From a virus, in IMG/VR virus record IMGVR_UViG_3300020123_000246: a DNA stretch of 53,936 nucleotides; one strand, written 5' to 3'. Positions within the stretch are counted from its first letter, which is position 1. Each line of letters opens with the position of its first letter. Shown piece by piece: positions 11,316 through 38,800 of this stretch. Position numbers and translations under genes: made by a program. The notes beneath the pieces were generated by a model. It ran no database searches and was not told the DNA's origin. It saw only the letters and a program-made list of their open reading frames with translations.

Positions 11316-11998
11316 GCTGGCATAGCCAATTTTCCGAGGACCGCTGGCTCGCAGAAAACCGAGAGCTCCCCGCCAAAGGCTATTTCGTTGAGGTTGGCGC
11401 TTACGATGGGATTTCCTGCAGCAATACTCTGGCCTTTGAAGAGATGGGATGGGAGGGCATGTGTTTCGAACCGGATCCGGAGATTGCCGAGCTCTGCCGC
11501 AAGAACCGCAAGGCGATGACCTACCAGACCGCGATCGGTGGAGGCGGTTACATGCAGCCTTTTTGGGTCAATGACGCCGATAGAGGGACCTCGAGCCTTA
11601 TCAAATACCCCAATACTCGAGACTACGGTGTTACGGTCAATCCACTCTGGAAATTCCTCGACCTCTGGCGGCCGCCGAGTTTCGATTTGCTCTCAATCGA
11701 CACTGAGGGAACCGAGCTCGAGGTGTGGTCAACTCGCGGGCCTTGGAACCCTACTTATGCGATCGTTGAGTTCTGGACTCAGCCGCAACCCCCGCGGTTC
11801 GAGAGCATCGTAGCGCGCTTTGAGGTTGACGGTTACCGCCTAATCCATCAAACCGAGGCAAATGCGATCTTCCAGATCGATCCAAAACCAGAACCAGAAC
11901 CATCATGTATAAGCCACACGTACGTTGCAGGGCATGTGGATACGGCCCTGTACCCAGTCCCGGCGGAACAAAATGCGGAACCTCCTCCGAAAGATTGA
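11312..11998 (+). CDS. FkbM-family SAM methyltransferase
   Basis: SQFSEDRWL...GYFVEVGAYDGISCSNTLAFEEMGWEGMCFEPDP is the characteristic FkbM-type N-terminal pattern. Confidence 0.8.
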   Translation: MSWHSQFSEDRWLAENRELPAKGYFVEVGAYDGISCSNTLAFEEMGWEGMCFEPDPEIAELCRKNRKAMTYQTAIGGGGYMQPFWVNDADRGTSSLIKYPNTRDYGVTVNPLWKFLDLWRPPSFDLLSIDTEGTELEVWSTRGPWNPTYAIVEFWTQPQPPRFESIVARFEVDGYRLIHQTEANAIFQIDPKPEPEPSCISHTYVAGHVDTALYPVPAEQNAEPPPKD

Positions 11999-13185
11999 TC
12001 CCGGTCTTTGACCTGGGACTGCAGCCTCTGGCCAACGATTTCTGCGCCGAAGAGGAAGAGCGCGCCGGCTTTGCACCGTTAAAGGTTTTGCTCTGCCCGA
12101 ACTGCCATCTGGCTCAGCTTTCGGTCACCGTCGATCCTACTATTCTCTACCGCCGGTACCTTTACGTCACCAGCACCAGCAAAACGATGCTGGACCATTT
12201 CCAGTATCTTTGGGAGCTACTACCTATCAATGAGCCAGTGCCCCGAGTACTCGAGATTGGCAGCAACGATGGGCTATTCCTTGAATTTATCAAACATCAG
12301 GGCTGCGAAGTAGTAGGGGTGGATCCCTCCTTAAATCTGTCGAAAATCTCAGGCGAGCGCGGGGTTTGCACTTACAACGGATTTTGGAATCAGGCCTTTG
12401 CTGAGGCTAACCCGGGGATTAGGCATTTTGAGCCGGATTTCATTTTCGCCCGGCATGTGTTCTGCCATGTCGACGATTGGCGCGATTTCATCGCCGGCAT
12501 CGAACTCGTAAGCACGGTCGAAACTCTCACCTGTATCGAAGTCCCTTATGTTGGCGACCTCCTCGAAAAGGGAGAATTCGACACTATCTATCATGAGCAC
12601 ACTTCCTACCTCAGCGTAAAATCGATAGCCAAACTCCTCGAGGGAACAAAGCTCAGGCTGCATCGGATTGAGAAGCTGGCGATTCACGGCGGGGCCCTGC
12701 TCGTTATGATCCGCCACAAAGACTCGAAAGATGCGCCGCACAAGAGCGTTTCTGAATACTTCCGCAATGAGAACGTGGGGCTCGAGGCTTGGCGGGACTT
12801 TGCTGTTAGATGCCAGGGCAAGATAGAAGCGCTCCGATCTGTTGTCCGCAAGGCCAAGAGCGAAGGCAAGAGGGTAGTCGGTTACGGCGCCTCGGCCAAG
12901 AGTACCGTTTGGTTGAACGCCTGTGGGTTCACCCGAAAAGAGATCGACTACATCACAGATAACACCATGGGAAAGCTGTACAAGCTCAGCCCGGGCAACG
13001 ATATCCCGATCGTGAATTCGGACAATCTGCACTACGATCAGCCGGACTTCGCGATCATGTTTTGCTGGAATTTCGCCGAGGAGGTCATTGCCAAAGAGAA
13101 GATTTTCCTTGAGAAAGGCGGCAAATGGGTGATACCTCACCCAAATATCAAAGTAATCGATGGGAGCGGTGAAGTGGTCCTGTGA
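11905..13185 (+). CDS. NDP-sugar C-methyltransferase-like enzyme (Zn-ribbon + class I MTase + C-methyltransferase C-terminal domain)
   Basis: CRACGYG...FDLGLQPLANDF...LCPNCHLAQL...YRRYLYVTSTSKTMLDHF...VLEIGSNDG; overlaps the previous gene by 94 nt. Confidence 0.82.
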   Translation: MYKPHVRCRACGYGPVPSPGGTKCGTSSERLIPVFDLGLQPLANDFCAEEEERAGFAPLKVLLCPNCHLAQLSVTVDPTILYRRYLYVTSTSKTMLDHFQYLWELLPINEPVPRVLEIGSNDGLFLEFIKHQGCEVVGVDPSLNLSKISGERGVCTYNGFWNQAFAEANPGIRHFEPDFIFARHVFCHVDDWRDFIAGIELVSTVETLTCIEVPYVGDLLEKGEFDTIYHEHTSYLSVKSIAKLLEGTKLRLHRIEKLAIHGGALLVMIRHKDSKDAPHKSVSEYFRNENVGLEAWRDFAVRCQGKIEALRSVVRKAKSEGKRVVGYGASAKSTVWLNACGFTRKEIDYITDNTMGKLYKLSPGNDIPIVNSDNLHYDQPDFAIMFCWNFAEEVIAKEKIFLEKGGKWVIPHPNIKVIDGSGEVVL

Positions 13186-18277: not shown

Positions 18278-19609
18278 ATGGCAGCAGCAGCATCTCCCCC
18301 GGCTGCAGCACCGGCCTCCCCGGCCGCTCCTGCAGTAGCACCAGCACCAGCAACACCAGCAACTCACGTCCAACCGCCGGGCGAACAGCCAGAGTCAGCC
18401 TGGCTCTCCGAAGTAGGCGCGGACATTGAGGAATTCGATCGGACTGGAAATCAGCCTCAGAATCGACCGCGGCAAGGTGCGGCCCCCAAGCCCGCGGCGC
18501 CGCCCCCTGATGACGATCTCGAGGTACCAGCGCCGCCAGAAAAGCCAGCCGCGGCCGCCAGGCCAGGTGAACAGCCGGTACCGCCGGCCGCCGAGGACGA
18601 AACCCGTTTGCCGGCGCCGCAACTGCGCAAGGCTCATGCCGAGCTCAAGAAAAAGGTCAACACCGAGTATGAGCCAGAGCTCCAACGCTTGCGCGCTCAG
18701 GTAAAGCAGCTCGAGGAGCGGCCGGCGGCTGAACCGGAAGAAACCAAAACCCGGCTTACTGAACTGCAGAAGCGGGTCGAGGAGCAAGAAGCGCACATAC
18801 GCTTTGTCGACTACCAGAACAGCGAGGACTATCTCAAAAACTACTGGCAACCGTATCAGGATGCCTGGAACGAAGCGCTTTCAGACCTGAACGAGCTCGA
18901 GGTCGAAAACCGGTTCGGTACCCGGCGGCCCGCCACCCAGGCCGATATTAACCATCTCGCCAGCCTCAAACTTGGCGAGCGGCGCAATGCGGCCAACGCG
19001 ATGTTTGGTGACTCGGCCGATGACGTCATGGCCCATGTTCGAAAGATCCTCGACCTCTCACAAAAACAGTCGAAAGCTCTGGCGGATAACAAAGCCAACA
19101 GCGCAAAACTGGCTCAGGAACGCCAGAATCAAGCGCTCGATCAGAACAAGCAGCGGATCGCTACCTGGGAAAGGCAGAATTCCAGCTTGGCTACCAAGTA
19201 TCCCGACTGGTTCGCGAAAAACGCTCAGGACCCAACGGGCAGCACGCTCCTCGACAAAGGTTTCCTTCTGGCCGATCTGCTTTTTGGCGAGGTCAAAGAG
19301 CCGCAATGGGGTTTGCTCCCAAAATCCTTCCAAGATGACCTCCGCGCCAATGGTGGGAAGCTCTCACCGGAAGGGCGGATCCGTTTGCATGCGGTTTTGA
19401 GGAATAAGGCGGCCGCGTTCGACCGGATTGCCTACCAACTCAAAGAGGTAAAGGCTGAGCTCGCCGAGGCTAAGAAAGCCCTGTCTGAATATGAGGACTC
19501 AGAGCCACCGGTTGGGGGCAGCGCTCCTCGCCGGGCTGGTGCGCCGGCGGTTGGCTCTGTCGATGAGGCAAACGCCGAGCTCGAGGCGCTCGACCGGGTA
19601 GGCCGATAA
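18278..19609 (+). CDS. Putative scaffolding protein (443 aa)
   Basis: Ala/Pro-rich N-terminus then long charged coiled-coil-like sequence; lies between portal and capsid genes. Confidence 0.55.
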   Translation: MAAAASPPAAAPASPAAPAVAPAPATPATHVQPPGEQPESAWLSEVGADIEEFDRTGNQPQNRPRQGAAPKPAAPPPDDDLEVPAPPEKPAAAARPGEQPVPPAAEDETRLPAPQLRKAHAELKKKVNTEYEPELQRLRAQVKQLEERPAAEPEETKTRLTELQKRVEEQEAHIRFVDYQNSEDYLKNYWQPYQDAWNEALSDLNELEVENRFGTRRPATQADINHLASLKLGERRNAANAMFGDSADDVMAHVRKILDLSQKQSKALADNKANSAKLAQERQNQALDQNKQRIATWERQNSSLATKYPDWFAKNAQDPTGSTLLDKGFLLADLLFGEVKEPQWGLLPKSFQDDLRANGGKLSPEGRIRLHAVLRNKAAAFDRIAYQLKEVKAELAEAKKALSEYEDSEPPVGGSAPRRAGAPAVGSVDEANAELEALDRVGR

Positions 19610-19947: not shown

Positions 19948-19981
19948 GCGCGTGTTCCGTCAACCCCTCAAAATCCGATGA
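19784..19981 (+). CDS. Hypothetical protein (65 aa)
   Basis: Ends in an ATGA overlap with the GroES-like gene, consistent with the coupling style of this operon. Confidence 0.4.
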   Translation: MKSIQPKKMKISRPYWTAKLSRSGNQIIINVERTVHHSDKALSLDRVAFSFPVNRRVFRQPLKIR

Positions 19982-20313
19982 TTCGTCCATTCAAGGGCAA
20001 GGTACTGCTTTTTATCTACCCCTATGAGGACACCAGCGCCGGCGGCATCTTCATCCCTGAGGACGCTCGAGGCGGATCAGTTTTGGAAAAATCCAAGCCT
20101 CGGAGGGCCCGCGTGATGGCTGTAGGAGAATGGAAAACCATTCAAAAAGACGGCAAAACATTTCACATTTTGCCCGATTTCAAGCAGGGGGATCTTGTAA
20201 TAGTCAGCGATTACGCAGGCACCAAAATGAGCCGCGGAGTGGATGAAAACCTACGGCTGTGCGGTATCGATGACGTGCTTGCAATCCTCAAGGAAGAGCC
20301 CAATACTGCCTGA
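19978..20313 (+). CDS. groES: Co-chaperonin GroES (Cpn10) homologue
   Basis: MIRPFKGKVLL...TSAGGIFIP...ARVMAVG...FKQGDLVIVSDYAGTK...IDDVLAIL aligns with the bacterial GroES pattern IRPL..RV...SAGGI...G.V.AVG...V.GD.V...DILA. Confidence 0.85.
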   Translation: MIRPFKGKVLLFIYPYEDTSAGGIFIPEDARGGSVLEKSKPRRARVMAVGEWKTIQKDGKTFHILPDFKQGDLVIVSDYAGTKMSRGVDENLRLCGIDDVLAILKEEPNTA

Positions 20314-20573: not shown

Positions 20574-22139
20574 ATGGCTCTTTCTTGCAGGCAGTTTACA
20601 GATTTTCTGAGTCGCCGGACTGAGCATCTGGACGATTACATCATTCGCTCACTTCACCCCGTCGACACATGGGTAGGCCATGTGGGCATCGGCCGCTTCA
20701 AAGCCGAGGACGGTGTTGAACATACTTTCGACCGGTTCGAAAACGTGTTCCCTGACCTCCGCGGTGCCTGGGAAGATGTTACGGCCGGCTCCTGTGTTGG
20801 TCAGCCTTGCGATCCTTCGGTCACAAAAATTGGCCTGGGCTTCACGCGGGACAGCTACAAGCTGCAGCGCAAGTCGTATGAAACGGACCTGTTCTGTTTC
20901 GACCAAATTCTTTCGGCCGATCGCGCCAAGCAGCAGTTTGCGCACGTCATTCGCACGCTGCGCCGAGCTTCCTCGCTGATTACCTCCCACCGCTTCCGGA
21001 CCGAGGGTTTGCGTATCGCCAAATATAAGTGGGCATGTGCCAACAACGGCCTGCAGGCGATTACCGCCACCTGGGACCCGACGATGACGTTCCTTTCGGT
21101 TTCCGCGCTCCCAACCTCGAAGATTGGCGCTCGCCACCTGCAGCGGCGCGTCCAGCCGCAGATCCGCGAAGGCGCTCTCGGCGAGGATATCAACCGCGGC
21201 ACTCAGCCCATGCTCGAGTTTGTGACGGATATGGATGAGGTCTGGAATATGGTCGAAGGCAATCCCGAGCTGACTGACCACTGGCGTTTTCGTGACTTCG
21301 CCGATGCGGAGAAGTACCACAAATACGGATGGGTGGGCCAACTCGGCAATTATGGCCTCCGTGCCGATTGGACCGCGCTCCGGTTCAACGTCCTGGGGCC
21401 CGATCCGGCCGTGCCGGGCAACACGCTCCTGCAGCTTGTGTTCCCCTACACCAACGTCAGCGCTACCGAGGGTTTGAAGGAATCCGTAAACTCGGACTTC
21501 GACAATGCCCGGGTGCAGCTCAACTTCATCTGGCACCGCAAAGCGATGACCTCGCTGGTTCGCGATACGACCGCCATCAATCCGGAAATGCCTTTCGCGA
21601 TGCGCGATTTTGCCGGGAAATGGCAGTTTGTGATGGACAACATCACTTGCGGCCAGGACGTAAACGGCAATCCGATCGCCGTCGACAACACCCGCCGGAA
21701 CAAGGGCAAATTCATTGCCGATTGGGCGTACGCCACCCAGGCCGAGTATCCCGAATTGGCCGAGGCCTTCTTCGCTCTACGTGAGCCGGCCTGCATCGTG
21801 GATATCCCGCCCTGTGCGAACGATCCGGGGTACCCGCTGCAGAATTACGCAAGCGCCAATGCGCTTTGCCCGTCAAACGTGGTGGTCCTCACCTTCACGC
21901 CTGTTCTCGATGTTGTGACCAACACGTATGAGGTTGCGCGCGACTCGATCACCTGTAACGGGCTCAACGTGCTCAACTCGCCGATCACTGGCACCAGCAC
22001 CCTTGCGGCGCTGGTAGCTCAGCTCAACTCGACCTCCGGTACCTCCGCTATGGGTACCTGGGCAGTTGCATCCGGCACAACGATCACGTTGACCGGAAGT
22101 GTCTGTCAGACAGTGGCAATCCCCTGGCTGATTGACTGA
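20574..22139 (+). CDS. Putative major capsid protein (521 aa) with Ser/Thr-rich C-terminal extension
   Basis: Position after scaffold/GroES, preceded by a 200-nt leader and followed by a hairpin terminator; no motif-level proof. Confidence 0.6.
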   Translation: MALSCRQFTDFLSRRTEHLDDYIIRSLHPVDTWVGHVGIGRFKAEDGVEHTFDRFENVFPDLRGAWEDVTAGSCVGQPCDPSVTKIGLGFTRDSYKLQRKSYETDLFCFDQILSADRAKQQFAHVIRTLRRASSLITSHRFRTEGLRIAKYKWACANNGLQAITATWDPTMTFLSVSALPTSKIGARHLQRRVQPQIREGALGEDINRGTQPMLEFVTDMDEVWNMVEGNPELTDHWRFRDFADAEKYHKYGWVGQLGNYGLRADWTALRFNVLGPDPAVPGNTLLQLVFPYTNVSATEGLKESVNSDFDNARVQLNFIWHRKAMTSLVRDTTAINPEMPFAMRDFAGKWQFVMDNITCGQDVNGNPIAVDNTRRNKGKFIADWAYATQAEYPELAEAFFALREPACIVDIPPCANDPGYPLQNYASANALCPSNVVVLTFTPVLDVVTNTYEVARDSITCNGLNVLNSPITGTSTLAALVAQLNSTSGTSAMGTWAVASGTTITLTGSVCQTVAIPWLID

Positions 22140-22201: not shown

Positions 22202-22528
22202 ATGAAAACCTATCCAGACGCCACCGAAACGGAGATGGATGAACTCTATGCTCCGAAAGAAGGCAAGCAGCCGCCCAAAACGGTTGACGAGCAGGAGGCC
22301 GGCGAGATGGAAACTAGCGCCGTTGTCCCGCTCAAACTCGTAACCCCCCAGGACGGAAAAGGGGTTAAGGTTGGCGATGAGATTATGGTCAAAGTCACCG
22401 CCATTAACGGGGATCAAGCCACTATCGCGTATGCGAAGGGCAAAGGTCCCGAGGGTCAGGGCTCTACCCCTGGCGAGGAAGTGAGCCCCGATCAGGAGCT
22501 CGATTCCATAGACAGTTCAAATTATTGA
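22202..22528 (+). CDS. Acidic hypothetical protein (108 aa), possible head decoration
   Basis: ORF track; immediately downstream of the capsid gene. Confidence 0.5.
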   Translation: MKTYPDATETEMDELYAPKEGKQPPKTVDEQEAGEMETSAVVPLKLVTPQDGKGVKVGDEIMVKVTAINGDQATIAYAKGKGPEGQGSTPGEEVSPDQELDSIDSSNY

Positions 22529-22531
22529 TTT

Positions 22532-22924
22532 ATGGCCGTTGCTACCATTGCCGCGGCAAAGTGCGACTTAAACACTTTGCTGAAAAGCTCACCTTGTTTT
22601 AACTGTTTGTCCGAACTCGAAAGCCAGGCAGTACTTGTGTACCTGCTCAGCCTGACGGTTTCCGCCCTTTCTGGTAATGCCGTGCAAACGCCGGCAGTGC
22701 TCAGAGCCATAACCGCTTGCATTAACTGCAGCCGTCCAGCAACCGTGTGCGACAACATGGATCTGGTTGTTGCGATGCAGGGAGCTCAAAACGCGGGCTC
22801 GGCTCTGGCAAGCGCCAGCACGGCCGCGCTTAAGAAAGCCGCAAACCCTTTCCGCAACATGAGCCTCCAAGAGTTGCGCTCAATCGAGATTCTCCTCCGC
22901 TGCCAGTTGAACCAGTGGATCTAA
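22532..22924 (+). CDS. Cys-motif module protein (three degenerate modules, 130 aa)
   Basis: AAKCDLNTLLKSSPCFNCLSELESQAVLVYLLSL; AVLRAITACINC...; ALKKAANPFRNMSLQELRSIEILLRCQL. Confidence 0.6.
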   Translation: MAVATIAAAKCDLNTLLKSSPCFNCLSELESQAVLVYLLSLTVSALSGNAVQTPAVLRAITACINCSRPATVCDNMDLVVAMQGAQNAGSALASASTAALKKAANPFRNMSLQELRSIEILLRCQLNQWI

Positions 22925-22927
22925 CCG

Positions 22928-23158
22928 ATGGCTGTTTCTTGCGCACCGGCGGATTTAGTTAAGGCTGCAGCCTGTTTCGAGTGCATTCCCGAATCTATGC
23001 AGAAGGCCGTTGAACTGTACCTCCTCGCAGTCATCGCCGGCGGCAGTCTGGACCCGGCAACGCTAGTGAAGGCCGCCAAGTGCTTCAAAACGTGCATCCC
23101 GAGAGAGATGCGCGATGCCGTCGAGGAGTATTTGTTGTGCCAAATTGTGAATAAGTGA
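22928..23158 (+). CDS. Cys-motif module protein (two modules, 76 aa)
   Basis: SCAPADLVKAAACFECIPESMQKAVELYLL and DPATLVKAAKCFKTCIPREMRDAVEEYLLCQ. Confidence 0.6.
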   Translation: MAVSCAPADLVKAAACFECIPESMQKAVELYLLAVIAGGSLDPATLVKAAKCFKTCIPREMRDAVEEYLLCQIVNK

Positions 23159-23161
23159 TGG

Positions 23162-23662
23162 TTAACTAGGTCTTTTCCATACCTTGAAATGTCGCACTCT
23201 ACTGATGACGGATTGGTTAACACCAAACCGACTAGCGAGAGCGCTCTGAACAAGCGAAGAGGATCTGATTTCCTTAATAGCCGCCCAATCCAACTTGTGG
23301 TTGGGCTTACTCTCACCTGCGCAACTCTGCTCTTTTATTCGCCTGTCTCGACCGTTTTCAACTTGTCCACCCAAGTACAAATGGGCAGGGTGCACACAAA
23401 GTTTGTTATCCTTGGCGGGGCAGTCATGCAGCACAAAACTACCCTCGGGAATTGGGCCATAATTCAAAATCCAAGAAGCGACGTGCGCCCTAACTGCTCG
23501 TTTCGGCTGAGTTCCGCAAACAATGCTGCCGTAACCAGAGCCGTCAATACCCGCCGTCCAGAGCCAGCATGTTTCAGTTTTACGAACCTTTTCCCAAAAG
23601 CGTTGCGGGAAGGTTGGCGAAAGGCCTTGCGAGGCCAAATACTCGGGAGTAATCTCGATCAT
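23162..23662 (-). CDS. HNH homing endonuclease (HNH_3 type) with C-terminal HTH
   Basis: CWLWTAG.DGSGYG...RAHVASWILNYGPIPEG.FVLHDC...NKLCVHPAHLYLG...EN; C-terminal LASRFGVNQSVISRVR; the only antisense gene in the structural operon. Confidence 0.85.
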   Translation of the reverse strand: MIEITPEYLASQGLSPTFPQRFWEKVRKTETCWLWTAGIDGSGYGSIVCGTQPKRAVRAHVASWILNYGPIPEGSFVLHDCPAKDNKLCVHPAHLYLGGQVENGRDRRIKEQSCAGESKPNHKLDWAAIKEIRSSSLVQSALASRFGVNQSVISRVRHFKVWKRPS

Positions 23663-23719
23663 CGTCAGTTGTTGCCTCGTTGGGTTTACAGGACCCGCGA
23701 GGCTCTTTCATTTTAGCTA

Positions 23720-24922
23720 ATGGCTATTTCGTGTCAACCTGCCGATCTGGTCAAAGCAGCTAAATGCTTCCCTTGCGTGCCAAAGAGCGCGCGCCGATGG
23801 GTTAAGTCTTACCTGCTCTGCCAGCTTTCCGTTAAACCGGGTGGAGTTTTAGGGATGGTTGCCCCCACCGGTTTCCAATTCACTCTGATTACCGGGCCTT
23901 CCGCCCAGGCCTCTTGGAACACGCCGCCAGGCAGTGTTACCGCTACCGAAGTCTGGACAAGCACAGACGGGATCACTTACGCACTGGCCGCGACAGTCGC
24001 CGCGCCAGGAACCACATCGACCTTAACAGCGCCTGCAGTTGGAACGGTCCTTTTTGCGCAAGCCCGATGGGTTTATGGAAGTAACGGCCCCGGACCATTC
24101 TGCAGCCCGGGCGAGACTTTCGGGAACGTCACTGATTGGGCCAACCGAGTAGTCGCAAACGGATCCGGGGTGGTCACAACTCAAACAATCAGCGCCATGA
24201 ATACGTTTTATGGTGCTCTGAATTCAGTTGGGACTTTAATCGCCAAAATCAAATCGATGGTTTGTATGACTCCGGCCAGCATTGTCGAAGCGTGCACGCC
24301 ACTGATTAAAACCTTTGGAAACGACCCTTGGTCGAGAATTGCGGGGCTCAATTACGAAATCACTGTCAACGGACTCAGAGCCACCGCGGTAAACGGAGCG
24401 CTCGACACAGGAGTAATACCGAGCGCCTGCTTTGCGAGCACGGCAACCGGTGGGTTGACTGCTTACGTTTTCACTTCGACTAACAACGACGGCGTAGCGG
24501 TAGATATGGGCTCCAATAACAGCAACGCTCAAACCTGCCAGCTATACACCAATTTCAGCGGAGCTCCAGGCAGTGCTTTTGGCCAAATTTATAATAACTC
24601 TACCGGCAGCGTTACTGGCACTGCGCATGGAGCTGGCTTTTGGTGTACCAATGTCAATGCGGGACCGACCTCACAGATTTACTACGGTTCTTCGAGCACT
24701 GGTTTTACTACCGCCGGCTCTTTGGGCTCAGGCGGTGGTACCCGGCCGACATTCAGTATGTTCGCCATGGGCTTGAGTGCCAGCGGCGCGACCGCCGGCA
24801 CCACGCAAGTTAGGCGTTACTCTTTCTTTGCGATTCACGATGGCCTGACCCAGGCAGAGGCCCAGGCGCTCTACAACGCCGTTCAAGCGCTCAGAACAGC
24901 CCTGGGGGGTGGGTTTATTTGA
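23720..24922 (+). CDS. Receptor-binding/fibre-like protein 1 (N-terminal Cys module, LamG-like C-terminal end)
   Basis: MAISCQPADLVKAAKCFPCVPKSARRWVKSYLLCQ; G/S/T/A/N-rich body; C-terminus RRYSFFAIHDGLTQAEAQALYNAVQALRTALGGGFI resembles the end of LamG/ConA-like domains. Confidence 0.5.
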   Translation: MAISCQPADLVKAAKCFPCVPKSARRWVKSYLLCQLSVKPGGVLGMVAPTGFQFTLITGPSAQASWNTPPGSVTATEVWTSTDGITYALAATVAAPGTTSTLTAPAVGTVLFAQARWVYGSNGPGPFCSPGETFGNVTDWANRVVANGSGVVTTQTISAMNTFYGALNSVGTLIAKIKSMVCMTPASIVEACTPLIKTFGNDPWSRIAGLNYEITVNGLRATAVNGALDTGVIPSACFASTATGGLTAYVFTSTNNDGVAVDMGSNNSNAQTCQLYTNFSGAPGSAFGQIYNNSTGSVTGTAHGAGFWCTNVNAGPTSQIYYGSSSTGFTTAGSLGSGGGTRPTFSMFAMGLSASGATAGTTQVRRYSFFAIHDGLTQAEAQALYNAVQALRTALGGGFI

Positions 24923-25881
24923 TCTCGTGTGTTCCAGCCGATCTTGTAAAAGCGGCGAAGTGCTTCCCTTGCGTACCTAAATCCGCTCGGCGGTGGGTGA
25001 GGGCTTATCTTCTGTGCCAGTTTGCGGGCAAGTCCGCTACCGGCGCCAGCGCAACGGCCGCCTGGGTAGCTCGAGTGATCGCCAATGGCGGCGCCACACC
25101 TTCTCAGGCTACGCAAACCGCAATGGCTACTTTCTGGAACTCGTTAAATGCGGCCGGCTTAATCCCATTGATGATCAATGTCGTATGCTTTGTGCCCGAC
25201 AATCTGATCGCAGCGATTACTCCTTTCTTCTTCACTCTCGGGCTGGATCCATGGACCAATGTTGGCGGGAACTTCGTGCCAGCGGATTTGAGCATTAACG
25301 GACTCACCGGCGACACATTAACTAAGGTTCTTGGAAGCAACATCACTGCAACCAACGCTTTCGTGAATTCAGGAGGGGCCATAGCCGCAGGGACAAGCGG
25401 CGGCCTTACCGTTTACACTTTCACGACCGGGCCTGCTGGAACCCAGATTGACATAGGGGCAAATTTCAACACGGCGCCCCAGAGCTTGGCTCTCTCTGCC
25501 ATTTTAAGTCCAGGCGTTCAAAATACCTCGCTTTTGGATTTTGTGAATCATTCGACCGGAAGAGCATCGGGGGCCAACGCTGGATGGACCGGTTTTACTT
25601 CTGGTAGCAGGACAAGCGGAAGCGCCTCTTCCATTTACATCGCTAACAGCGTGACTGCCTTTCAGCAACTCGGAAGCGATGCAAACAATCTGGCAGGTAC
25701 AGCCTTTGGCGCTGATTCCATCGGTATCTTTGGGTATGGCGCGGCGGGGTCATTTACACCGAGCAGCGGCCGTACACTGTCTTTTGCCGCAGTACATCTC
25801 GGTCTGACCAGCACTCAAACTCAGGCTCTATTCAATGCCGTCCAGGCTCTTCGAGTGGCTTTTGGCGGCGGATTTGTATAA
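24919..25881 (+). CDS. Receptor-binding/fibre-like protein 2 (paralog of 23720..24922, TTG start)
   Basis: MISCVPADLVKAAKCFPCVPKSARRWVRAYLLCQ and C-terminus RTLSFAAVHLGLTSTQTQALFNAVQALRVAFGGGFV; TTGA overlap. Confidence 0.5.
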   Translation: MISCVPADLVKAAKCFPCVPKSARRWVRAYLLCQFAGKSATGASATAAWVARVIANGGATPSQATQTAMATFWNSLNAAGLIPLMINVVCFVPDNLIAAITPFFFTLGLDPWTNVGGNFVPADLSINGLTGDTLTKVLGSNITATNAFVNSGGAIAAGTSGGLTVYTFTTGPAGTQIDIGANFNTAPQSLALSAILSPGVQNTSLLDFVNHSTGRASGANAGWTGFTSGSRTSGSASSIYIANSVTAFQQLGSDANNLAGTAFGADSIGIFGYGAAGSFTPSSGRTLSFAAVHLGLTSTQTQALFNAVQALRVAFGGGFV

Positions 25882-26475: not shown

Positions 26476-26517
26476 AGAGTTGTTGTCTTTTTGTTCATAG
26501 GGGCGTACAACCGCCCC

Positions 26518-26994
26518 ATGAAACAAAAACTATCCCTCATTGCAGTTCTGGCGATCTCGCTGTGTGCCATTTGGTTTGCTGGCTGTACAACTCCCAATCC
26601 CAATTACAACCCCAACCAGCCGCCATCGGCATCTAATCCCCCTTTTTCTCCGGATCCGCGGATTCTCTCGGTGTCCAACGCGGCAGCCCAGCTCAACAGC
26701 CAGTTGGCGCCAGTGAACCCCTACTCGGACCTGAGCGGGTGGGCAGTCAAATTGGGATTTGGAGCCCTGGGGCTAATCAGTGGAGCCGTGGGAGCTTACA
26801 AGGATCGACAGGCAATCGTTAATGCGCACGCCGCTACGATTTCCACTCTGGCTGATGGGATTGTGAAGGCTGGATCCGGCCAAGCCGTGCTCGACCATGC
26901 GAGCAGCACTGATAATTTTGCCGCAGTGGCTACGGCTATCAATGCCAGCACTGGCGCCAACCAAACAGCGGCCGGAACGGTAAAAACCGCCTAA
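26518..26994 (+). CDS. Lipoprotein (lipobox FAGC) with an internal Gly-rich hydrophobic segment
   Basis: MKQKLSLIAVLAISLCAIWFAGC signal/lipobox; LGFGALGLISGAVGAY. Confidence 0.65.
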   Translation: MKQKLSLIAVLAISLCAIWFAGCTTPNPNYNPNQPPSASNPPFSPDPRILSVSNAAAQLNSQLAPVNPYSDLSGWAVKLGFGALGLISGAVGAYKDRQAIVNAHAATISTLADGIVKAGSGQAVLDHASSTDNFAAVATAINASTGANQTAAGTVKTA

Positions 26995-28834: not shown

Positions 28835-29992
28835 ATGGCAAATTTTCCGTGTGACAACACAATCATCTGCCCTTGCACTGATAACCCTTTGGGCAATTTC
28901 AGCTCCGAGGCGCCGGATCCCTTCGTCTATTACGGCTTTCGGCCGGTTCTTTGGAACCCCAACAATCCAATCGGCGGGCATCGTCCGCCGGCGCCGCCAA
29001 TCTACTACGCGGCCGATTGTGCGGGCTTCTGCACGTCGACCCTCTCGCAAGAGGACGCGGACCTCTGCGCCGCGCGCCAGGCTTTCATCTGTTCGCACAC
29101 GCCACCTGGGGGCGGGCCTCCGCAGCTCTTTTTTAACCAGCCTCAGAGCTGCTCACTCCCATGCGGAAACGGCTCCTTTTTCGTGTGGCAAGTGCCCGGC
29201 GGGGCTTTCGTGAATGTCAGCCAGGCGGCCGCGGACAATCAGGCCCAGGCCTACGCCTGCCAGCAAGCCGCTTTGCACGCCTTCTGTCTCAATGACATTC
29301 CCAATGAAGCGGAAACCGGCACCGAATACGATGCGACCATTTTCGTAAACGGCGCCGCGCGCACCCCGGTTCACTTCCTTTTAGTTGCTGGCAGTTTGCC
29401 GCCAGGCCTGACGCTGACACCGGAAGGGCCCTTGAGCACATTCCTCCATGGGACCCCGACGACAACCGGTACCTTCACTTTCACGATCGAGGCGGTCGAT
29501 GCCATCGGGGTATTTGTCACCAAGCAGTACACGATAACGGTAACCTCGACCTGTTCTCAGTTCTGGACCTCCATAGCGGGCAACTGGACATTCCAATTCC
29601 AGGGAGCTAACAGCACTGGCTCGATCTCAGGCAATTTGCTGATCGTTTCCGCTTACACCAAAAATGGCATCGATCTATTTGGCATTACGATTGCCAATAA
29701 CGGTGTGAGCCCCCCGCTGAACCCGGTACTCACCGCTCAATTTCAATGCACCCTTACGGTAGTGCCTTTGGTGATTACAAACATAGGGCCCATCGGTGTT
29801 CTGCAAATTCAAATCGATGACGCCAACACCGCAGCAGTGTATTTCACTTTCACTGGCGCGCCCGGCGCACCTACTGTTTTTAATTTCACTTTGCCGGTAG
29901 GAGCAAAGCCCAGGGTGAGTGCTACCGTCACGCTCCAGAGCCCGGTAAACGGTTTCGATTCTCAGTTGGCGTATGGGATCACACTCGGATGA
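28835..29992 (+). CDS. Structural protein with Ig-like (He_PIG/cadherin-like) repeat
   Basis: LPPGLTLTPEGPLSTFLHGTPTTTGTFTFTIEAVDAIG is the putative-Ig-domain signature; Cys-rich N-terminus. Confidence 0.55.
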   Translation: MANFPCDNTIICPCTDNPLGNFSSEAPDPFVYYGFRPVLWNPNNPIGGHRPPAPPIYYAADCAGFCTSTLSQEDADLCAARQAFICSHTPPGGGPPQLFFNQPQSCSLPCGNGSFFVWQVPGGAFVNVSQAAADNQAQAYACQQAALHAFCLNDIPNEAETGTEYDATIFVNGAARTPVHFLLVAGSLPPGLTLTPEGPLSTFLHGTPTTTGTFTFTIEAVDAIGVFVTKQYTITVTSTCSQFWTSIAGNWTFQFQGANSTGSISGNLLIVSAYTKNGIDLFGITIANNGVSPPLNPVLTAQFQCTLTVVPLVITNIGPIGVLQIQIDDANTAAVYFTFTGAPGAPTVFNFTLPVGAKPRVSATVTLQSPVNGFDSQLAYGITLG

Positions 29993-31089: not shown

Positions 31090-32001
31090 ATGCCAAGCAC
31101 CCCAGGAATGGCGCCGGTTTTTAATAACTACTTTGCGACCTCCCCTTACTATGGCGGCGGATACCCAGGCAGCACCCAATTTTCGCCGTACACCTCCGCG
31201 AGCGAAGCGACGTCATTCAACCTCGGCTCAGGCGCCAATACTGAGGCGCTTACCGGCCAAATCAACGCGCTCAACCGCCAGGGCCAGGCCGCGGCGCTCG
31301 GCTCTCGGATCCCCAACGCAACCGGCCTCGAGGCGGAAAGCTCAGCCAACATTGGCTCTGAGCTCGCCGGCAATCTTCCGGCCGATGTTATCCGCAACCT
31401 GCAGCAGGCGGCTGCCGAGCGTGGCGTTGCAGTTGGCTCTCCTGGCTCGCCAAATTCAAGTGCTGCTTACCTCCGAGCATTGGGGCTCAGCTCATTGGAT
31501 CTGAGCAACATGGGACAACAGAACCTTTCCTCCGCTCTGGCGCGCAATCCCGCGGCGCCGCTCTTTGACCCCTCACAGCTCTTGATCACTCCGTATCAGG
31601 GCGCAACCCTGGGTGCTACTCAAACCCAACTTGGGCTCAGAGAGCAGGAGCTCAGGGATCAACTGATCCAGGATCGTGCGAACCTCGCGCGGCAATCTGC
31701 CCTTGGCGGGCCCCGAGGAGGAGGCGCAGCCGAGGACCCTGGCGCTTATGCGCGCCAGCCATTCGCTTCCGACCTCCAAACAACTTTTGTCGGCGCCAGT
31801 CCAACCGCATCGCCTGGACCCGCCGGAAATCTACTTTTCATGAATCCAGCCGGCGCGAATTATGCGTATCCTCCGACAACCGGTACCGGTACCTATTCGG
31901 CAACGGATGCCCAGGGCAACCCCGTCGCACCAGCGCCCGGCGGCTCACTTAATGCCGGTATGGATACTGAGCAGATGATGAATGATTTAGGGTTTGCCTA
32001 A
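31090..32001 (+). CDS. Low-complexity (G/A/S/P/Q-rich) putative internal virion protein
   Basis: ORF track; composition; position upstream of the giant protein. Confidence 0.45.
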   Translation: MPSTPGMAPVFNNYFATSPYYGGGYPGSTQFSPYTSASEATSFNLGSGANTEALTGQINALNRQGQAAALGSRIPNATGLEAESSANIGSELAGNLPADVIRNLQQAAAERGVAVGSPGSPNSSAAYLRALGLSSLDLSNMGQQNLSSALARNPAAPLFDPSQLLITPYQGATLGATQTQLGLREQELRDQLIQDRANLARQSALGGPRGGGAAEDPGAYARQPFASDLQTTFVGASPTASPGPAGNLLFMNPAGANYAYPPTTGTGTYSATDAQGNPVAPAPGGSLNAGMDTEQMMNDLGFA

Positions 32002-32865
32002 ATGCCACAAGATCCTAAAGATGAAGTGAGCGATATTTTGGAGCGAAGTGCTCCAAATGTCGGTTCAATGTGGATGGTTGGCGAAGAGGATCAGCCGGGA
32101 GCAATATCGGCTGCTCCAATGCCGACCCCGGCGCCTGGCGTGCCCCGCTCCTCTTCTGGCGCGCCTTTGCCGCCCCCTGCTCCTCCGGTGCAATGGACTA
32201 ATGCCGCACAACCTGCAGCCGGCGGCGATTTACAGTCCCAAATCTCGAGCATGCCGTTAGATAAGGCTACAGCAGCTTATTCGGCCGCTCTCAAGTTTCA
32301 GGCGATGCGCGGGTATCAAGCGGACCTGCAGGCGGGCAAGCCGCCGGCCGATGCGCTCGCCAAGTGGGCCCCGCTCATGTTCACGGCGCCAAAAGAAGCC
32401 ACTCTCGGCCAGGCCGCTACCATGGTCCGAAATGTCCGGCCGCCGGCGCCTGTTATCCGGACTGCCAACGGCCAAATCTTTCAGGTGGGCACTAACGGCG
32501 CCGTGCCTCTCACCCCTCCGGTAACTCGGCATGATTCGGCCAACCAGATCGACGTGCTCGATTACCGGGACAAGTTGAAAGAGATGGATACGCTGAGAGC
32601 TTCTCTGGCTGAGGATCCCAACGCCAAAGACAAGCCGATGAAGCTGCGCCGGATGCGAGCATTGCAAGATGAGCTCGACCAAATTCGAAATCGCGCGCCG
32701 CAAGTAGCCAATCCGCAACCGGCTCAAGTGCCTCCTCCTACTCGGACCTCGAGCAGCTCACCCAAGCGCGTTTGGGTGAAGTCCAAGGATGGCCGGACCG
32801 GCACGATCCCTGAGGAGCAGCTTGACGAGGCTTTAAAGGCAGGTTACACCCGGGTCAACAGGTGA
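32002..32865 (+). CDS. Pro/Ala-rich putative internal virion protein
   Basis: ORF track; composition; position. Confidence 0.45.
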   Translation: MPQDPKDEVSDILERSAPNVGSMWMVGEEDQPGAISAAPMPTPAPGVPRSSSGAPLPPPAPPVQWTNAAQPAAGGDLQSQISSMPLDKATAAYSAALKFQAMRGYQADLQAGKPPADALAKWAPLMFTAPKEATLGQAATMVRNVRPPAPVIRTANGQIFQVGTNGAVPLTPPVTRHDSANQIDVLDYRDKLKEMDTLRASLAEDPNAKDKPMKLRRMRALQDELDQIRNRAPQVANPQPAQVPPPTRTSSSSPKRVWVKSKDGRTGTIPEEQLDEALKAGYTRVNR

Positions 32866-32869
32866 TACC

Positions 32870-35800
32870 GTGCCAGTTGACTTCCTAGAGGCCCCGCTTC
32901 CGGAAACGGCGCCAGAGACGCCGGCTGCTACTCCTCCAATCCAGTTCCAGCCAGGCGGAATCGATTTTCTGCCCGCCGAGGAGATCGCAAAAAGTGCCGT
33001 CAATATCGGTGTTGGGCTCCCTCAGGCCGTTAATCGGCTCCTCACAAATCCGGCTGTAGCAGCATCCTCCGAAATGGGCCGAGCGGCTGCCCAACAGGAA
33101 AGGGCAGATCAGGAACGAATGCAGCAAGCCCGATACATTGCTGGCGCGGGCCCATCGGCCGGTTTGGCGTTGATACCCCCTGAGGCCACAAAACAGGCTT
33201 TGGCTTACGCGCCGACCATTCCCGGCCGGATGCTCAATGCTTTCATGCGGCAGGCGGCCATGGACCCGGGCACAGGCGTTCACCCGCCGACGCCGCAAGC
33301 CTTTGGTGAAACCGAGGCTGAGTATGAGCAGCGGAAGCAGTACCCAATGGGAGCTCCCGGCGAACCGCTCTACATACCGCAAACGGACAATCCAAGCGAC
33401 TTTCAGAAATTGGCGATGCAGGCCTCCACCATCAATGACCTGCTTGCCATTCCTATCGGGGTGACTCGCACCGGCGGCAAAGTGCTACTGGCCAGCATGG
33501 TCCCCGGGATTATTGGCCAGGTGAACGAGATTGCCACTGGCCCGGGTGATGCCAGGGATAAGCTCGAAAAGGCAAAGGCTTTGATTATCCCTGCAGCTAT
33601 CGGGGTTTTTGCTTCCCGACCTCGAGGCGCTCGCCTATTCCCTGAGCGGCTTGGTCCGGAGGCTGATATCGGTACCCCGGTTTATCCGCCCATGGAATTC
33701 AGTGGCGCCGCGCTCCCCGGCAGGCCTGCAGGAGCAATCCCTCGAGGCGGCCCGGCGGGTGTTGGCCCGGGCTACCCGATTGTCCCGCGTGCGGCCGAAC
33801 CGGTTGGCCCGCAATTCCCACGCCGCGGCGCGCCGATTGAGGTACCGGGAACGGCCGCCGGACCCGCACAAACTGTTCTCGAGGAGATCCGTGCCAATGA
33901 TGCGCGCACTATTCCACAAATTCAGGAGCTCTTTCCGCAACTCACTCGAGAGCAAGCTCGAGTCTATCGCAACCAAGTTTGGGGCGCCGCGGTTAGCGAT
34001 GTGGGTGTCCGAGTTTCGCCGGCCGTGCCGAGGCCTTCTCCGATGGGTCCTCCCACTCCGAGAGCCGAGGCGCCGCCGGAGGCTCCCAGGACCCCTACTA
34101 CTGAGGAGCAAATCGCTGCCCGAGAAGCTCCTGAGGTTGCAGCTCGCCGCTCAGCTCTCGAGCAGCAGATTATCACCTGGGAGCGAGAGCTCGAATTTGC
34201 TCAAAAGCGCGGAGATGCTCGAGCGCAGCAGGCGGCGGTCGATAAACTCCTCGAGCTCAGACGTCAATATGAGGGTCCTCAACCACCCGCCAAGCAACCC
34301 ATCACGCCTAAACAGCCGGTACCTGGCGTGCCTCGAGGCTCTTTCCCGCCTGAGGTACCAGCAACGGCCGCCCAACCGCGGGAAACTGTCCTCGCAGAAA
34401 TTCGACGGGCTAACGCTCGAACGCGCGCCGAAATCCAAAAGCTTTTTCCAGCTCGTAACCTCACGCGGGAAGAAGCTGCAGCACTGAGGGATCAGGCCTG
34501 GGGCAAACAACCGCCGGAAGAGCCACCCGCGGCACCGCCGGCAGCGCCAGCACCCAAAGAGCCTACCCCTCCCGCTCCTGCAGCGCCGTCAGCCGCAAAG
34601 CCGGAAATTGCAACGCGCTCAACCAGCCCGAACAATAACCCATTGGGCGATCCGATGGGGACTACCTATCACGCTACGCCTGAGGATTGGGCCCAATGGC
34701 AGAAGCTGATGGAGCAGCGCAAGGCGCTCAACTCAGACCCGAACAAGACTGTTCAACAGAAATTCCAGCAGGGCGCCGAGCTCAGCCAGGCGATCGAGGA
34801 CCTGAAAAACAAATACGGCGGGGCGCCGCCTAAAGAGCCAAAGGTCGGTGCTCCTCCTGTTACCGGTTCACCGGACGATCTTGTTCCTGCTCTCAAGCCA
34901 AAAGAGGGCGAAGTCATTCAGGGCCAAAAGGGCAACGTCCATGATGATATTTACAAAGCTCAGGGCGATATCGAAGGCAAGCTGCTCAGAGTTGGGCAAC
35001 CGGAGCACGGATTCTGGAACTCGAAGCTAAAGAAATTTCAGACGCGCGATGAAGCAGCAGCCTACCTGGGAGAAAAAGATCCGCTCCATTCCGAGCGGCT
35101 TATCGAGCTTCAAAAGAAGGTTGCGCCACCCGAGCCGACTGCAACGCCGGCAGCGGCCGCTCCACCTGCAGAGGCCCCGCCGGCGGCGCCGGAAAAGCCT
35201 AGCACGATCGGGGAAACCCCTCTCGCCGGCAAAACCCTTGGAGAGTGGGAAGCGGTCAAGGATGCCTCGCAACTTCCCCGAGGGGACGCGCGCGCCGAGC
35301 TCGCCAAGTATTTAGCGGTACCCAACCAGCCAAGCCGGATCCTGCAGGCCCTGGCCAACAAAAAGCGCACCCGCGAGATTCACGCGCCTCCGGCCGAGGT
35401 TGCACCGGTTCTATCAGGCGAACTCGCCTTGCGCTTTGGCGATTGGGGTCCTGATGGCAAATTGCATTACAGCAATAAAGTAATAGGGGTACCTTCCTTG
35501 GAAGATGCCGCCCGTAAATGGAATGAGATTCGAGAGAAGTCAGGAGCGGGAGCAAGCGAATCTCCGGTTGTAGTGGTCGTTAATACCAAAACGGGTGAAC
35601 ACGTAGCGAAGGTCAGTTACAACGGCAGATTATGGGACGCGCAAGGCAAAGAAATCCAGCCAGAGCCGAAAACCGCTAAGGCCGAGCCTACCGCACCCGC
35701 CGAAGCTCTCCCGCCAACATTGGCCAGTCTTTGGACTGAGTATGACGAAGGCGGGAAGATGACTGAGCGCGATCTCTTGCAACACGTTCTGAACATGGAG

Positions 35801-38800
35801 CCGGAAAATCTTCCACCGGCACTTGCAAGAGCAGCGGCCAAGTACCGAGATGCGGTTGAGGAAGATTTCAGCATGGCGGGCCGTGGTGATGTTGAGCCTG
35901 CTCAAGACCGGTTCATGGCCGAATTTGAGAAAGCGGCTGGAAAGGAAAAGCCGAAAACTGAAACGAAACCCGCCGAACCTGCAACACCTACTCCTGTTTC
36001 TGAAACGAAACCGCCTGTTAGTGCAACACCGGCGGCAGGGGCAGCCAAAGCGCAAGCCGAGGTCAGCAAAGTTGCGGCGACCGAAGGCCAGCGACCGGCG
36101 AAGGATGTTAAGCAGGATTTGATTGATGGGCTACAACAGGCGCTTATGAAAGCGCCGTCGAAAGAGGAAATTGACGCGGTTCAAAAGCCGGGCACGAAAA
36201 CCTTTGATGCCGATAAATGGCCAGAGGACAAACCGAAAACCGTAACGATTGACATTCCCGGCGATGGTGTTTTCACGGTTCCTAACACGATTGAGGCACT
36301 TTCCGAGGTACTGGATCGTGCTCGGAAATTAAAGACAGATGCAGGCAAACCTGAGAAGGTTTCGAAAAAAGCTATCAAGGCCAGTGAGGGAGCGATTCGA
36401 AAGACCGCTGGCACTACGCCTACCCCGGAACAGCCACCCTCTGACCTCGGCCCCACTGGCGGCACTGGCCCCGGCACTCCATCAGCAGAACAGGGCCCCG
36501 ATCCGGTTGTGCTCGACCTCAGGACCGGCAATCCGCTCTTCAATTCCCTACAGCGGAAGTACCAGAACTTTTTCACCGGGCTCAAGCAGCTCTGGACGCG
36601 CCATCCCGCCAAGCTCGATATCATGGGCTTGTCCAACGCGGCGAATAACCTTCCGCGGATTTACGGGCAGCAGGCCGGAAACTCCCTCAGGCTCGGCGCT
36701 ACCGAGGCCGATTTGAAAGCGGCGACCATGCTCATGCAGTCGCTCAAGATGAGTGGCGACGGCCTTTCGGTCGAGGATGCTGAGCGCCTCGGGAAGCTCG
36801 AGTTTGCTGACGACCCGCAAGGCTACCTCAGGGATAAAGAGAGCCAAATGTTCACCACGGCCCAACGCTTCCTCCACCAAGGCAAGAAGCTCGAGGCCGC
36901 GGCTGCTCTCGACGCACACCGGGCTTACAAGGATGCCGCGGACAATTTCAATCGCTTGCGTCCCCTGGCTGAGAGGGCCCGCCAGAAATTCGATCGCCAG
37001 TTTGGGCGGGAGCAAGCCTCAGGCCTGGATACCGCTTACGAGAATTGGTACGTGCCTCAACGTCACGATCTCGATCTCTTTGTCAGTCCCAATCGGCCGA
37101 TCGTGCTCGGCGATTCCAAAGGCGGCGGCGGCGCCCAATTCCGCAAAGCCAAGTTTTACGAGGACTATGCCAGCGCCATCGAGGCCGGCTGGATCCCTCG
37201 CTCTCTCAACATTGCTGACCTGCTCGAGCACCGGGTAGCTTCCGGCGAGCGCATGATTTTCAACAAGGGCTTCTTTGATCAGATGCGCAGTATCACTGAC
37301 CCGGTCGATCAACGGCCGGTTGTCATCGATATTCCCCGGCGCACCATTCAAATGCCGGATGGCACCACGCGCAGCCAAGAGTCAATCCCGCACGGTTATA
37401 CCAAGATGGAGGTCAGCCCAGGCGTAAACGTCGCAGTCCATGAGGGCTACTCCAGGCTGGTTAATGCGCTCACTGCCAGAAGTCAGCTCGCAGAGTCGGC
37501 GGTCGTGGGCACGCTGCAGGACATTGCCGCCGTCGAAAAGCATCTGATGCTGGCTCTGGATACGTTCCACCTGTCGCGCGTGCTCCAGGCCGAATTCTTC
37601 CTCACCGGCAAAGTCAGCCTCGGCCAGCGCCAGCGCATCGGCCGCGCTTTGGTCGAATACAGCGCCGAGGATTTCGACCGGGCAGTCAAGGCCGGCGAAC
37701 TCACTCAGGAGATGGTTGACTACATGCGCAAGCCGCAGCCCATGGAGGTTCACGGTAAGACGGTTAATGTGAGTCCCAAAAACCTCGTCATGTTCGGCGC
37801 CAGGCAGGGGCTCAATATCGGCCGCATCGGCGACGCTCTTTACCGCGATTGGCTGCGCAACATGCCGATCACCGGCGAGATAAACAAATTCGTTTTCGAC
37901 AAGGTTTCCCGCAGTGCAATCGCAAATGGCTTTCTCGCCGAATTTGAGCGCGTTGCCAAAGCGAACCCTGATCTCACCGGCGCCCAAGTGGCAAAGCAGG
38001 TCGCGCGCGATATCAACGTCCTCTTTGGCAATCTCCAAAAAGAGAGCATCTTCCGCAATCCTTCCCTGCGCTCGCTGACCCAAGTGCTTTTCCTGGCGCC
38101 GCAGTGGGTTGAATCTCTGGCCAGGCGTGAGACTCGAGGTGTCCTCCAGTTTGGCCAGGCTGCGGCCGATATCCCCAAAGCCATTTCCGAGGGCCGTCTG
38201 CCGCGTTTGGGCACCGTGGGTAAAGGTGTCGGTACCGCCCTGGCCGGCTACTTCGCCGGCACTCAGATCCTGAATCTGATAACCCGCGGCAAATTCACCT
38301 TCCAGAACCCGGAGGCGGGCCACAAGCTGGACGCCTGGATCCCCGGCGGGCAAAATGGCTTCTTCATTTCCCCGCTCTCGGTCTTTGGCGAGATCACCCA
38401 TGACATTCTGCGCTACGCCGAGACCAAACCCGACTTCGCTACTGCCGTCCAGCAAATCGGGATGAACAAGTTAGGGCCGCTCGGTCGGTTCCTCTACGTG
38501 CTCGCCAGCGGCCGGGACCCGATGACGGCTGAGAAGCTTGTCGGCACTGGCCGGCGGGCTACCCGCGCCGCCATGACTGCGGTACCGGTACCGATCACCC
38601 TTTCGCAGCCTTTGCGCCTGGCGGGCTCAAAGCTGGCCCCGGGAGTGATATCCCCGCCTGCCCCCGGCGCCGTCGAGCGACAGGGCCTGGCCTCCATCGG
38701 CTTTAAGACTGAGCCGGTCGGCACGGCCCAAAGCCAGATTTATCACTTGGCCGAGAAGTGGAAGAGCCAGTCAGGCAACGCCAAGTACGAGGCTGAGGTC

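Follow-up and report, generated by a model that had tools for sequence, protein, structure and literature searches.

The IMG/VR virus record IMGVR_UViG_3300020123_000246 provides a stretch of 53,936 nucleotides (the window), which spans an entire contig and in which four late genes share one short cysteine-containing module. The genes are here called open reading frames (ORFs) A, B, C and D (Table 1). The locus raises the question of what this module is and why it occurs both in proteins that consist of nothing else (A and B) and at the N-termini of larger proteins (C and D). The module is a helix-turn-helix hairpin domain of ~36 residues that is unannotated in every library searched. We propose with moderate confidence that an array of these modules is stapled by disulfides and anchors capsid decoration or fibre proteins through their N-termini, with A and B as anchor-only paralogues.

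A first-pass annotation of the window had counted seven copies of the module, three in A, two in B and one each in C and D. This count holds and is based on direct matches to a hidden Markov model (HMM) for five copies and on profile-profile comparison for two. The five clear copies are the only ones in the window found by a regular expression in all six frames. The HMM built from these five gives domain independent E-values (iE) of about 5e-19 to 5e-23 for its own seeds, which is circular. It also matches independent relatives at 1e-9 to 1e-12, and its next-best match elsewhere in the window has E=2.7. ORF A carries three copies, two of which are degenerating. In a single-sequence HMM search of A the middle copy fails and the C-terminal copy is borderline (iE 5e-3). 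Three repeats are visible in the alignment of the A family (11 members), and comparison of the thirds of A with the module profile by hhalign yields probabilities of 98.2, 96.5 and 97.9 %. A and B are indeed pure arrays of the unit that caps the larger proteins. The four genes had been described as consecutive; all of them contain the module, but a minus-strand HNH gene splits B from C.

The modules of C and D are recovered by the iterated HMM with iE of 4e-14 and 3e-14, respectively. They share 84 % protein identity while their synonymous sites are saturated (proportion of synonymous differences, pS, 0.75; of nonsynonymous differences, pN, 0.11). These values indicate that the two modules are old copies under purifying selection. 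Recent gene conversion between them is ruled out by the pS of 0.75. C and D are paralogous beyond the module, with 36 % identity in their C-terminal 277 residues.

The first-pass annotation did not recognise the motif as a described domain, and the library searches bear this out. None of Pfam, PHROGs, NCBIfam, PDB and BFVD contains a match to the module. Scans of Pfam, PHROGs and NCBIfam gave no usable match for A, B, C, D or the neighbouring ORFs scanned with them, and A–D have no profile match to an annotated tail-fibre or tailspike family in Pfam or PHROGs. A model of B was predicted with AlphaFold2 (AF2) from an alignment of 73 sequences, with a predicted local distance difference test (pLDDT) score of 79. 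It contains four helices (residues 7–19, 22–36, 43–55 and 59–74) that form two hairpins with the CxxC at each turn. Foldseek found no similar fold to this model in PDB or BFVD.

The family is large. An exhaustive HMMER search of 1.84 billion representatives (clusters at 50 % identity) with a 37-column single-module profile retrieved 2,073 representative proteins at E≤1e-3; the stricter cut-offs of 1e-10 and 1e-30 leave 774 and 55, respectively. Many of these are proteins of 250–843 amino acids (aa) bearing four or five N-terminal modules. B itself has 82 homologous clusters at 90 % identity, nearly all ~75 aa long and all unnamed and metagenomic. The module is widespread among uncultured phages, in a large clade whose genomes measure about 51–58 kb. 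A tblastn search with B against 50,697 GenBank phage records found no match at E≤0.1. The patterns tried on GTDB species genomes, in search of prophages or hosts, revealed no relative; one scan was empty and the back-translated 'YLLAVIAGG' pattern gave two chance matches. A word-indexed search with the single-module profile returned just 22 matches and is uninformative, and a search for related loci seeded with the single multi-module proteins P0218 and P0224 found none.

The module is repeated one to six times in tandem, and the array opens the protein. In a mutually diverged set of 146 representatives, the array starts at most 12 residues from the N-terminus in 142. Several architectures are seen: single-module mini-proteins of 39–45 aa (for example in loci L002, L003, L014 and L016, beside cargo proteins), the two-module B family, the three-module A family, adjacent pairs of five-module proteins (L021–L023) and one or two modules preceding variable proteins of 250–625 aa. 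The cargo behind the arrays includes FN3, Ig and LamG domains, BspA-type leucine-rich repeats (LRR) and a ~260-aa domain ending in 'ALGGGF[VIR]'. The latter, the 'GGGF' domain, is the most frequent cargo and is borne by C and D. C and D had been called fibre-like in the first pass. This label is not supported by their contents, which are an FN3-like segment (in C) and the ~260-aa domain of unmatched fold. The FN3-like segment shows weak similarity to FN3 in the PDB, and FN3 passes the Pfam threshold in relatives (L020, P0240).

Neither Pfam nor the PDB contains a match to the 'GGGF' domain. Other phages carry it on unrelated, non-module N-termini; in L036 it adjoins a collagen-like tail-fibre gene and in L053 it is located just after a portal gene. 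It is an exchangeable cargo. In a phage that lacks the hairpin module, four consecutive genes end in the 'GGGF' domain and differ in their N-terminal parts (L030, 7393–11855); the domain is amplified in lineages other than the module-bearing ones, too.

The arrays are split between proteins in some phages and fused in others. Four or five modules can be joined in one chain ahead of the same cargo, and L026 has a fused module-cargo protein after its capsid-like and g108-like genes and no separate A or B. By gene-fusion logic, these fusions support a co-assembly of the split arrays and lend indirect support to the adaptor or docking idea of the first pass. The five-module arrays were also considered as colinear fusions of A and B. 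This was rejected, as the A and B HMMs cross-match all modules in no order.

The cysteines of the module occupy four positions, namely Ca (in 'SC', column 4), Cb and Cc (both at the turn) and Cd (in 'LLCQ', column 33), so that a single module reads C-x10-C-x2/3-C-x14-C. The turn cysteines are present at every position of the array, Cb in 118 and Cc in 110 of 127 modules. Their spacing is CxxC in 69 turns and CxxxC in 34 (34 of 108 turns). The outer cysteines mark the ends of the array. Ca is found in 31 of 40 first modules, 2 of 22 internal modules and 1 of 40 last modules, whereas Cd is found in 3 of 40 first, 0 of 22 internal and 33 of 40 last modules. Single-module proteins carry both (Ca in 23 of 25, Cd in 21 of 25). 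The opening cysteine lies 2–5 residues from the initiator Met. This bracket grammar, with an opening cysteine only at the start of the array and a closing cysteine only at its end, is new here.

Outer and turn cysteines co-vary separately. Among the polypeptides of the related loci, 51 have both Ca and Cd, 4 have neither and 4 have just one of the two (p=4e-4). The corresponding numbers in an independent representative set are 78, 14 and 4 (Fisher p=4e-13), and those for Cb and Cc in the representative set are 399, 62 and 27 (p=8e-54). In L020, both outer cysteines are missing from all three module proteins, which retain the CxxC. Because the two pairs co-vary separately and L020 has lost the outer pair only, the cysteines behave as two independent functional pairs, and the outer pair belongs, by this co-variation, to the array and not to the module. 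The bracket pattern 'CC---'/'C---C' can be read as one closed module and, after it, a closed unit of four, and 'C-C-'/'-C-C' as two two-module units. A single zinc site of four cysteines in each module is rejected since the pairs vary independently. The metal- or disulfide-stabilised knot suggested in the first pass does not fit as a single four-cysteine unit per module, as the outer pair is array-wide.

The position of the module genes is fixed relative to a gene for a 521-aa capsid-like protein. A homologue of this protein is present in all 22 related loci for which upstream sequence was fetched (L001–L023 except L006, where the fetched stretch starts too near B). The module genes are directly downstream of it in all 22 loci and additionally in L026, L027, L031 and L045. 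With the iterated HMM, every module copy in 26 related sequences falls into one cluster directly downstream of the 521-aa homologue.

Homologues of the 521-aa protein make up at least 500 clusters, all unnamed, and no relative was found by tblastn in the same GenBank phage records. The protein has no sequence or profile match in PDB, Pfam or PHROGs; PDB sequence and profile searches were likewise without a match for C, the 'GGGF' domain and the products g611 and g767. The AF2 model of the 521-aa protein (pLDDT 59) shows a spine-like helix of 38 residues (111–148) followed by a β-core. Its top five Foldseek matches in the PDB are HK97-type phage capsids, although not significantly so (E of 0.07–0.9, probabilities of at most 0.28). 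The gene follows that for the GroES-like protein, and the 521-aa product is here taken as the probable major capsid protein. Its C-terminal ~80 residues (pLDDT 85–90) are shared with the closest homologues alone (L001, L007, L008, L014 and L018). They are absent in remoter relatives and may be an added surface domain.

The N-terminus of the 521-aa protein is conserved as 'M-A-x-[SP]-C', with Cys5 present in at least 90 % of 16 homologues down to 24 % identity. Cys74, Cys414 and Cys432 are invariant as well, and Cys79 and Cys108 nearly so. The first-pass annotation had likened this 'MALSC...' start to the start of the module proteins. The conserved feature is confirmed; homology to the module is not, with an hhalign probability of 0.3 %. 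The g385 family (homologues in L004, L005, L006, L021 and L024), which has a He_PIG Ig domain and a weak match to DUF5977, begins with M-x3-4-C, so that a cysteine is located at residue 5 or 6. Further cysteines follow at residues 11–14, and then the sequence 'SAEAPD'. It thereby adds a third family of virion proteins that have a cysteine among their first six residues.

The cysteine content of the late proteins is bimodal. The capsid-like protein has 11 cysteines, g611 11, g385 13 and g351 10, as opposed to none at all in the 2,078-aa, 303-aa, 287-aa and 443-aa late proteins. This distribution fits Cys-rich exposed proteins and Cys-free internal or ejected ones. We infer that exposed parts of the virion may use disulfides and that internal or ejected parts may avoid them. 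The virion would be disulfide-prone, because conserved cysteines are present in the capsid-like protein and at the N-terminus of g385 and are missing from the putative internal proteins.

L001 (14672–15361) and L024 (20274–20957) encode a homologue of 'fiber I' from podophage GP4 (Pfam PF23140, E 1.5e-15), 4–8 kb downstream and beside the conserved g611 block. Thus, these phages have a separate tail-fibre region. The ORFs of the window itself gave no equivalent match to this Ralstonia podophage protein. L024 (ENA contig_61395, 168,251 bp), which carries P0160 and a homologue of the capsid-like protein, is about three times the usual 56-kb genome and may be a concatemer and not a prophage.

The anchor reading is preferred because the arrays are N-terminal and their cargo is variable, because the genes are syntenic with the capsid-like gene and a separate tail-fibre homologue exists, and because of the cysteine grammar, the gene fusions and a precedent in phage Milano. 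In this model, the hairpins of an array would pack into a compact helical bundle. Through this bundle, decoration or fibre proteins with their cargo would be attached to the particle, most likely at the capsid shell or at a capsid-bound partner, and interchangeable binding domains would face outward. The anchor-only proteins A and B would take up equivalent positions or make the bundle complete. Once the cell has lysed, both cysteine pairs would oxidise to disulfides and lock the anchor. The Cb-Cc disulfide would staple the turn of each hairpin, and the Ca-Cd disulfide would clasp the ends of the array or join neighbouring chains head-to-tail.

The closest analogue in design is found in the linking proteins LP1 and LP2 of Agrobacterium phage Milano (PMC10491603). 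LP2 (gp128, 38 aa) is similar to the N-terminal strand of LP1 (gp16), whose Ig-type domain projects from the capsid, and both proteins are located at quasi-equivalent capsid positions (PMC10491603). Cysteines 3 and 7 of LP1 and 6 and 10 of LP2 are disulfide-bonded to the minor capsid protein as parts of a virion-wide disulfide network (PMC10491603). In both systems a small anchor-only paralogue and an anchor with cargo share an N-terminal segment (here A and B versus C and D), and the cysteines are N-terminal, within the first 3–10 residues of LP1 and LP2 and with the opening cysteine at residues 3–5 of module proteins of 39–76 aa. Other virion proteins here are also rich in conserved cysteines. 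There is no sequence similarity between the systems, as judged from the tblastn search with B described above. Furthermore, the Milano anchors are short extended strands and not tandem hairpins, and they have neither the CxxC turn nor the bracket grammar. The capsid location is shown for Milano, whereas here it is inferred from the conserved N-terminal cysteine and the gene position.

Two further likenesses are less close. T5 pb10 (PMC5292684) and T4 Hoc combine an N-terminal anchor with an outward Ig- or FN3-type domain, are encoded near the capsid gene and have a proposed role in weak adhesion to surfaces. Pfam and PHROGs scans show no homology to them, and their anchors are single, non-repeated and not dependent on cysteines. 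We know of no family of anchor-only paralogues for pb10 or Hoc. The CHCH (twin CX9C) and small-Tim (twin CX3C) proteins of the mitochondrial intermembrane space, an unrelated biological setting, also have a helix-turn-helix hairpin with four cysteines forming an inner and an outer pair, which would correspond to Cb-Cc and Ca-Cd. CHCH proteins need two CX9C motifs, whereas the spacings in the module are 10 and ~14 and internal modules are without outer cysteines. In contrast to small-Tim proteins, the module has no CX3C on each helix. Its inner cysteines are found inside the turn as a CxxC, and the outer ones of an array enclose all of its modules, unlike in either family.

Several points weigh against the anchor reading. 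The placement of A–D in the virion is putative, and the identification of the 521-aa protein as a capsid protein is suggestive at most, given the pLDDT and the Foldseek E-values of 0.07 or above. LRR, LamG and 'GGGF' cargo is equally typical of receptor-binding proteins of tails, and in L036 the 'GGGF' domain is a neighbour of the tail-fibre gene mentioned above. The co-variation of the cysteine pairs reports functional coupling and not bond chemistry. Assembly occurs in the reducing cytoplasm, where the CxxC could bind metal instead. Finally, the model does not account for how an array of five modules and 10 helices joins its ends.

The cargo leads to one alternative, which we regard as unlikely. 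The array may plug receptor-binding proteins into the tail, much as the fibres and tailspikes of podophages are attached by conserved N-terminal anchors, and A and B would then be adaptor or branching proteins of a complex with multiple receptor-binding proteins. A conserved N-terminal anchor with a strongly variable C-terminus is in line with such a role, as are the 'GGGF' cargo on other N-termini in unrelated phages, including the L036 protein beside the tail-fibre gene, and the several cargo-bearing paralogues per genome (C and D; also L004 and L027). The module genes, however, always directly follow the capsid-like gene, and in L001 and L024 several kb separate them from the g611 block and the GP4 fiber I homologue. 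Moreover, abundant arrays without cargo, such as the two adjacent five-module proteins of L021–L023, are unusual for tail adaptors, and the known families of tail-fibre anchors in Pfam and PHROGs show no similarity.

The turn cysteines can also be read as a metal-docking device, which is quite unlikely. Each CxxC would be half of a Zn(Cys)4 site that is completed by the CxxC of a second hairpin from the same or another chain. Modules would thus dock through shared zinc, which would be a specific form of the multivalent adaptor suggested in the first pass. The Rad50 zinc hook is comparable in that its antiparallel helical hairpin has a CxxC at the apex, which could pair with a second hook. The CxxC at the turn of the predicted antiparallel hairpin, the joint loss of both turn cysteines, the reducing site of assembly and the coexistence of single-module C and D with multi-module A and B all agree with metal docking. 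P0218 has, furthermore, a weak Pfam match to zf-Tim10_DDP (18.0 bits, below the cut-off of 22.3; no stretch passes alone), whereas A–D have no Pfam match to this family at E≤1. Small-Tim proteins, to which this match points, form disulfides rather than zinc sites when mature. The module helices are short and do not form a long coiled coil as in Rad50, and about one third of the turns are CxxxC and not CxxC. The number of CxxC-bearing modules is odd in 47 of 146 proteins, and in the B family module 2 is often without CxxC while module 1 keeps it. The odd counts argue against an obligatory intramolecular pairing of CxxC motifs around zinc. The independent variation of the outer pair leaves no four-cysteine site per module.

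A variant that we consider very unlikely assigns the outer cysteines to intermolecular bonds. The closing cysteine of one chain would bond with the opening cysteine of the next and create a disulfide 'chainmail' on the capsid. The Ca-Cd bond would stand in for the 'AG-GGS-x-DP' peptide linker that joins modules within an array. After lysis A, B, the mini-proteins, C and D would be concatenated into covalent chains or rings of hairpins with pluggable binding domains. That the proteins are not structural at all, and instead are soluble redox, regulatory or anti-defence factors of the late operon, is extremely improbable: the CxxC is similar to redox-active motifs and both A and B are tiny, but the module is fused to FN3, Ig, LamG and LRR in hundreds of proteins, no thioredoxin-like fold is predicted for B, and the genes keep a fixed same-strand place, with overlapping start and stop codons, between the capsid-like gene and conserved late genes.

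The late genes from the GroES-like gene through ORF D form one run on the plus strand, with the exception of the HNH gene. The encoded HNH protein matches Pfam HNH_3 with E 1.3e-4, which is under the curated cut-off, and has an HTH-like (helix-turn-helix) segment at the C-terminus. The gene is missing from the interval between B and C in the fetched relatives inspected and is therefore probably a recent mobile insertion. The 108-aa protein has homologues in L001, L013, L014 and L020 and a similar ORF in L026; scans of Pfam, PHROGs and NCBIfam gave no family match. The GroES-like gene, which in the window closely precedes the capsid-like gene, recurs in L001, L007, L008, L014, L024 and L025.

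Two other genes of the window are conspicuous. A 167-aa protein with a lipoprotein-type signal peptide (…WFAGC) is encoded inside the structural gene block and has a weak PHROG match to an Rz-like spanin (E 0.009). A 426-aa protein contains sugar C-methyltransferase domains (Methyltransf_14, E 2e-39, and the zinc-binding domain Methyltransf_13). It is unexpected in a phage and is possibly tied to DNA or glycan modification.

Table 1. Positions of the module genes and of other features in the window.
Feature	Position	Strand	Remarks
426-aa methyltransferase-like protein	11905–13185	+	
GroES-like gene	19978–20313	+	Pfam Cpn10, E 5e-11
521-aa capsid-like protein (putative major capsid protein)	20574–22139	+	Homologues in related loci
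C-terminal ~80 residues of the 521-aa protein	21880–22139		
108-aa acidic, Cys-free protein	22202–22528	+	Between capsid-like gene and module genes
ORF A, 130 aa, three modules	22532–22924	+	HMM matches, family alignment, hhalign
ORF A, module 1	~22553–22660	+	Opening Cys and CxxC
ORF A, module 2	~22670–22795	+	CxxC retained, helix 2 degenerate
ORF A, module 3	~22811–22912	+	CxxC gone, closing Cys retained
ORF B, 76 aa, two modules	22928–23158	+	
ORF B, module 1	22928–23041	+	Opening Cys5, C16-x2-C19
ORF B, module 2	23042–23152	+	C52-x3-C56, closing Cys71
HNH homing endonuclease gene	23162–23662	-	phrog_826, E 6e-22; outside the module system
ORF C, 400 aa	23720–24922	+	
ORF C, closed single module	23720–23833		
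ORF C, FN3-like segment	~23855–24109		
ORF C, 'GGGF' cargo domain	24137–24919		
ORF D, 320 aa	24919–25881	+	TTG start overlapping the ORF C stop
ORF D, closed single module	24919–25029		
ORF D, 'GGGF' cargo domain	25063–25878		
167-aa protein with signal peptide	26491–26994	+	
g385	28835–29992	+	
2,078-aa, 303-aa, 287-aa and 443-aa late proteins	32870–39106, 31090–32865, 18278–19609	+	Cys-free

The module family comprises more than 2,000 clusters at 50 % identity, is unannotated in the libraries searched and is specific to uncultured phages. Its grammar is unusually clear, with a CxxC at each turn and bracket cysteines at the ends of the array only, and the bracket rule predicts which cysteines pair. 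The proposed function is of a known kind, with exchangeable cargo on an N-terminal virion anchor and with paralogues that are anchor only; the module and its bracket grammar are new. If the anchor reading is true, the module would be a handle for annotating surface and decoration proteins across a clade of environmental phages. It would also represent a second, structurally different case of disulfide-locked linking proteins after Milano, and a natural plug-in system that displays varied binding domains on capsids.

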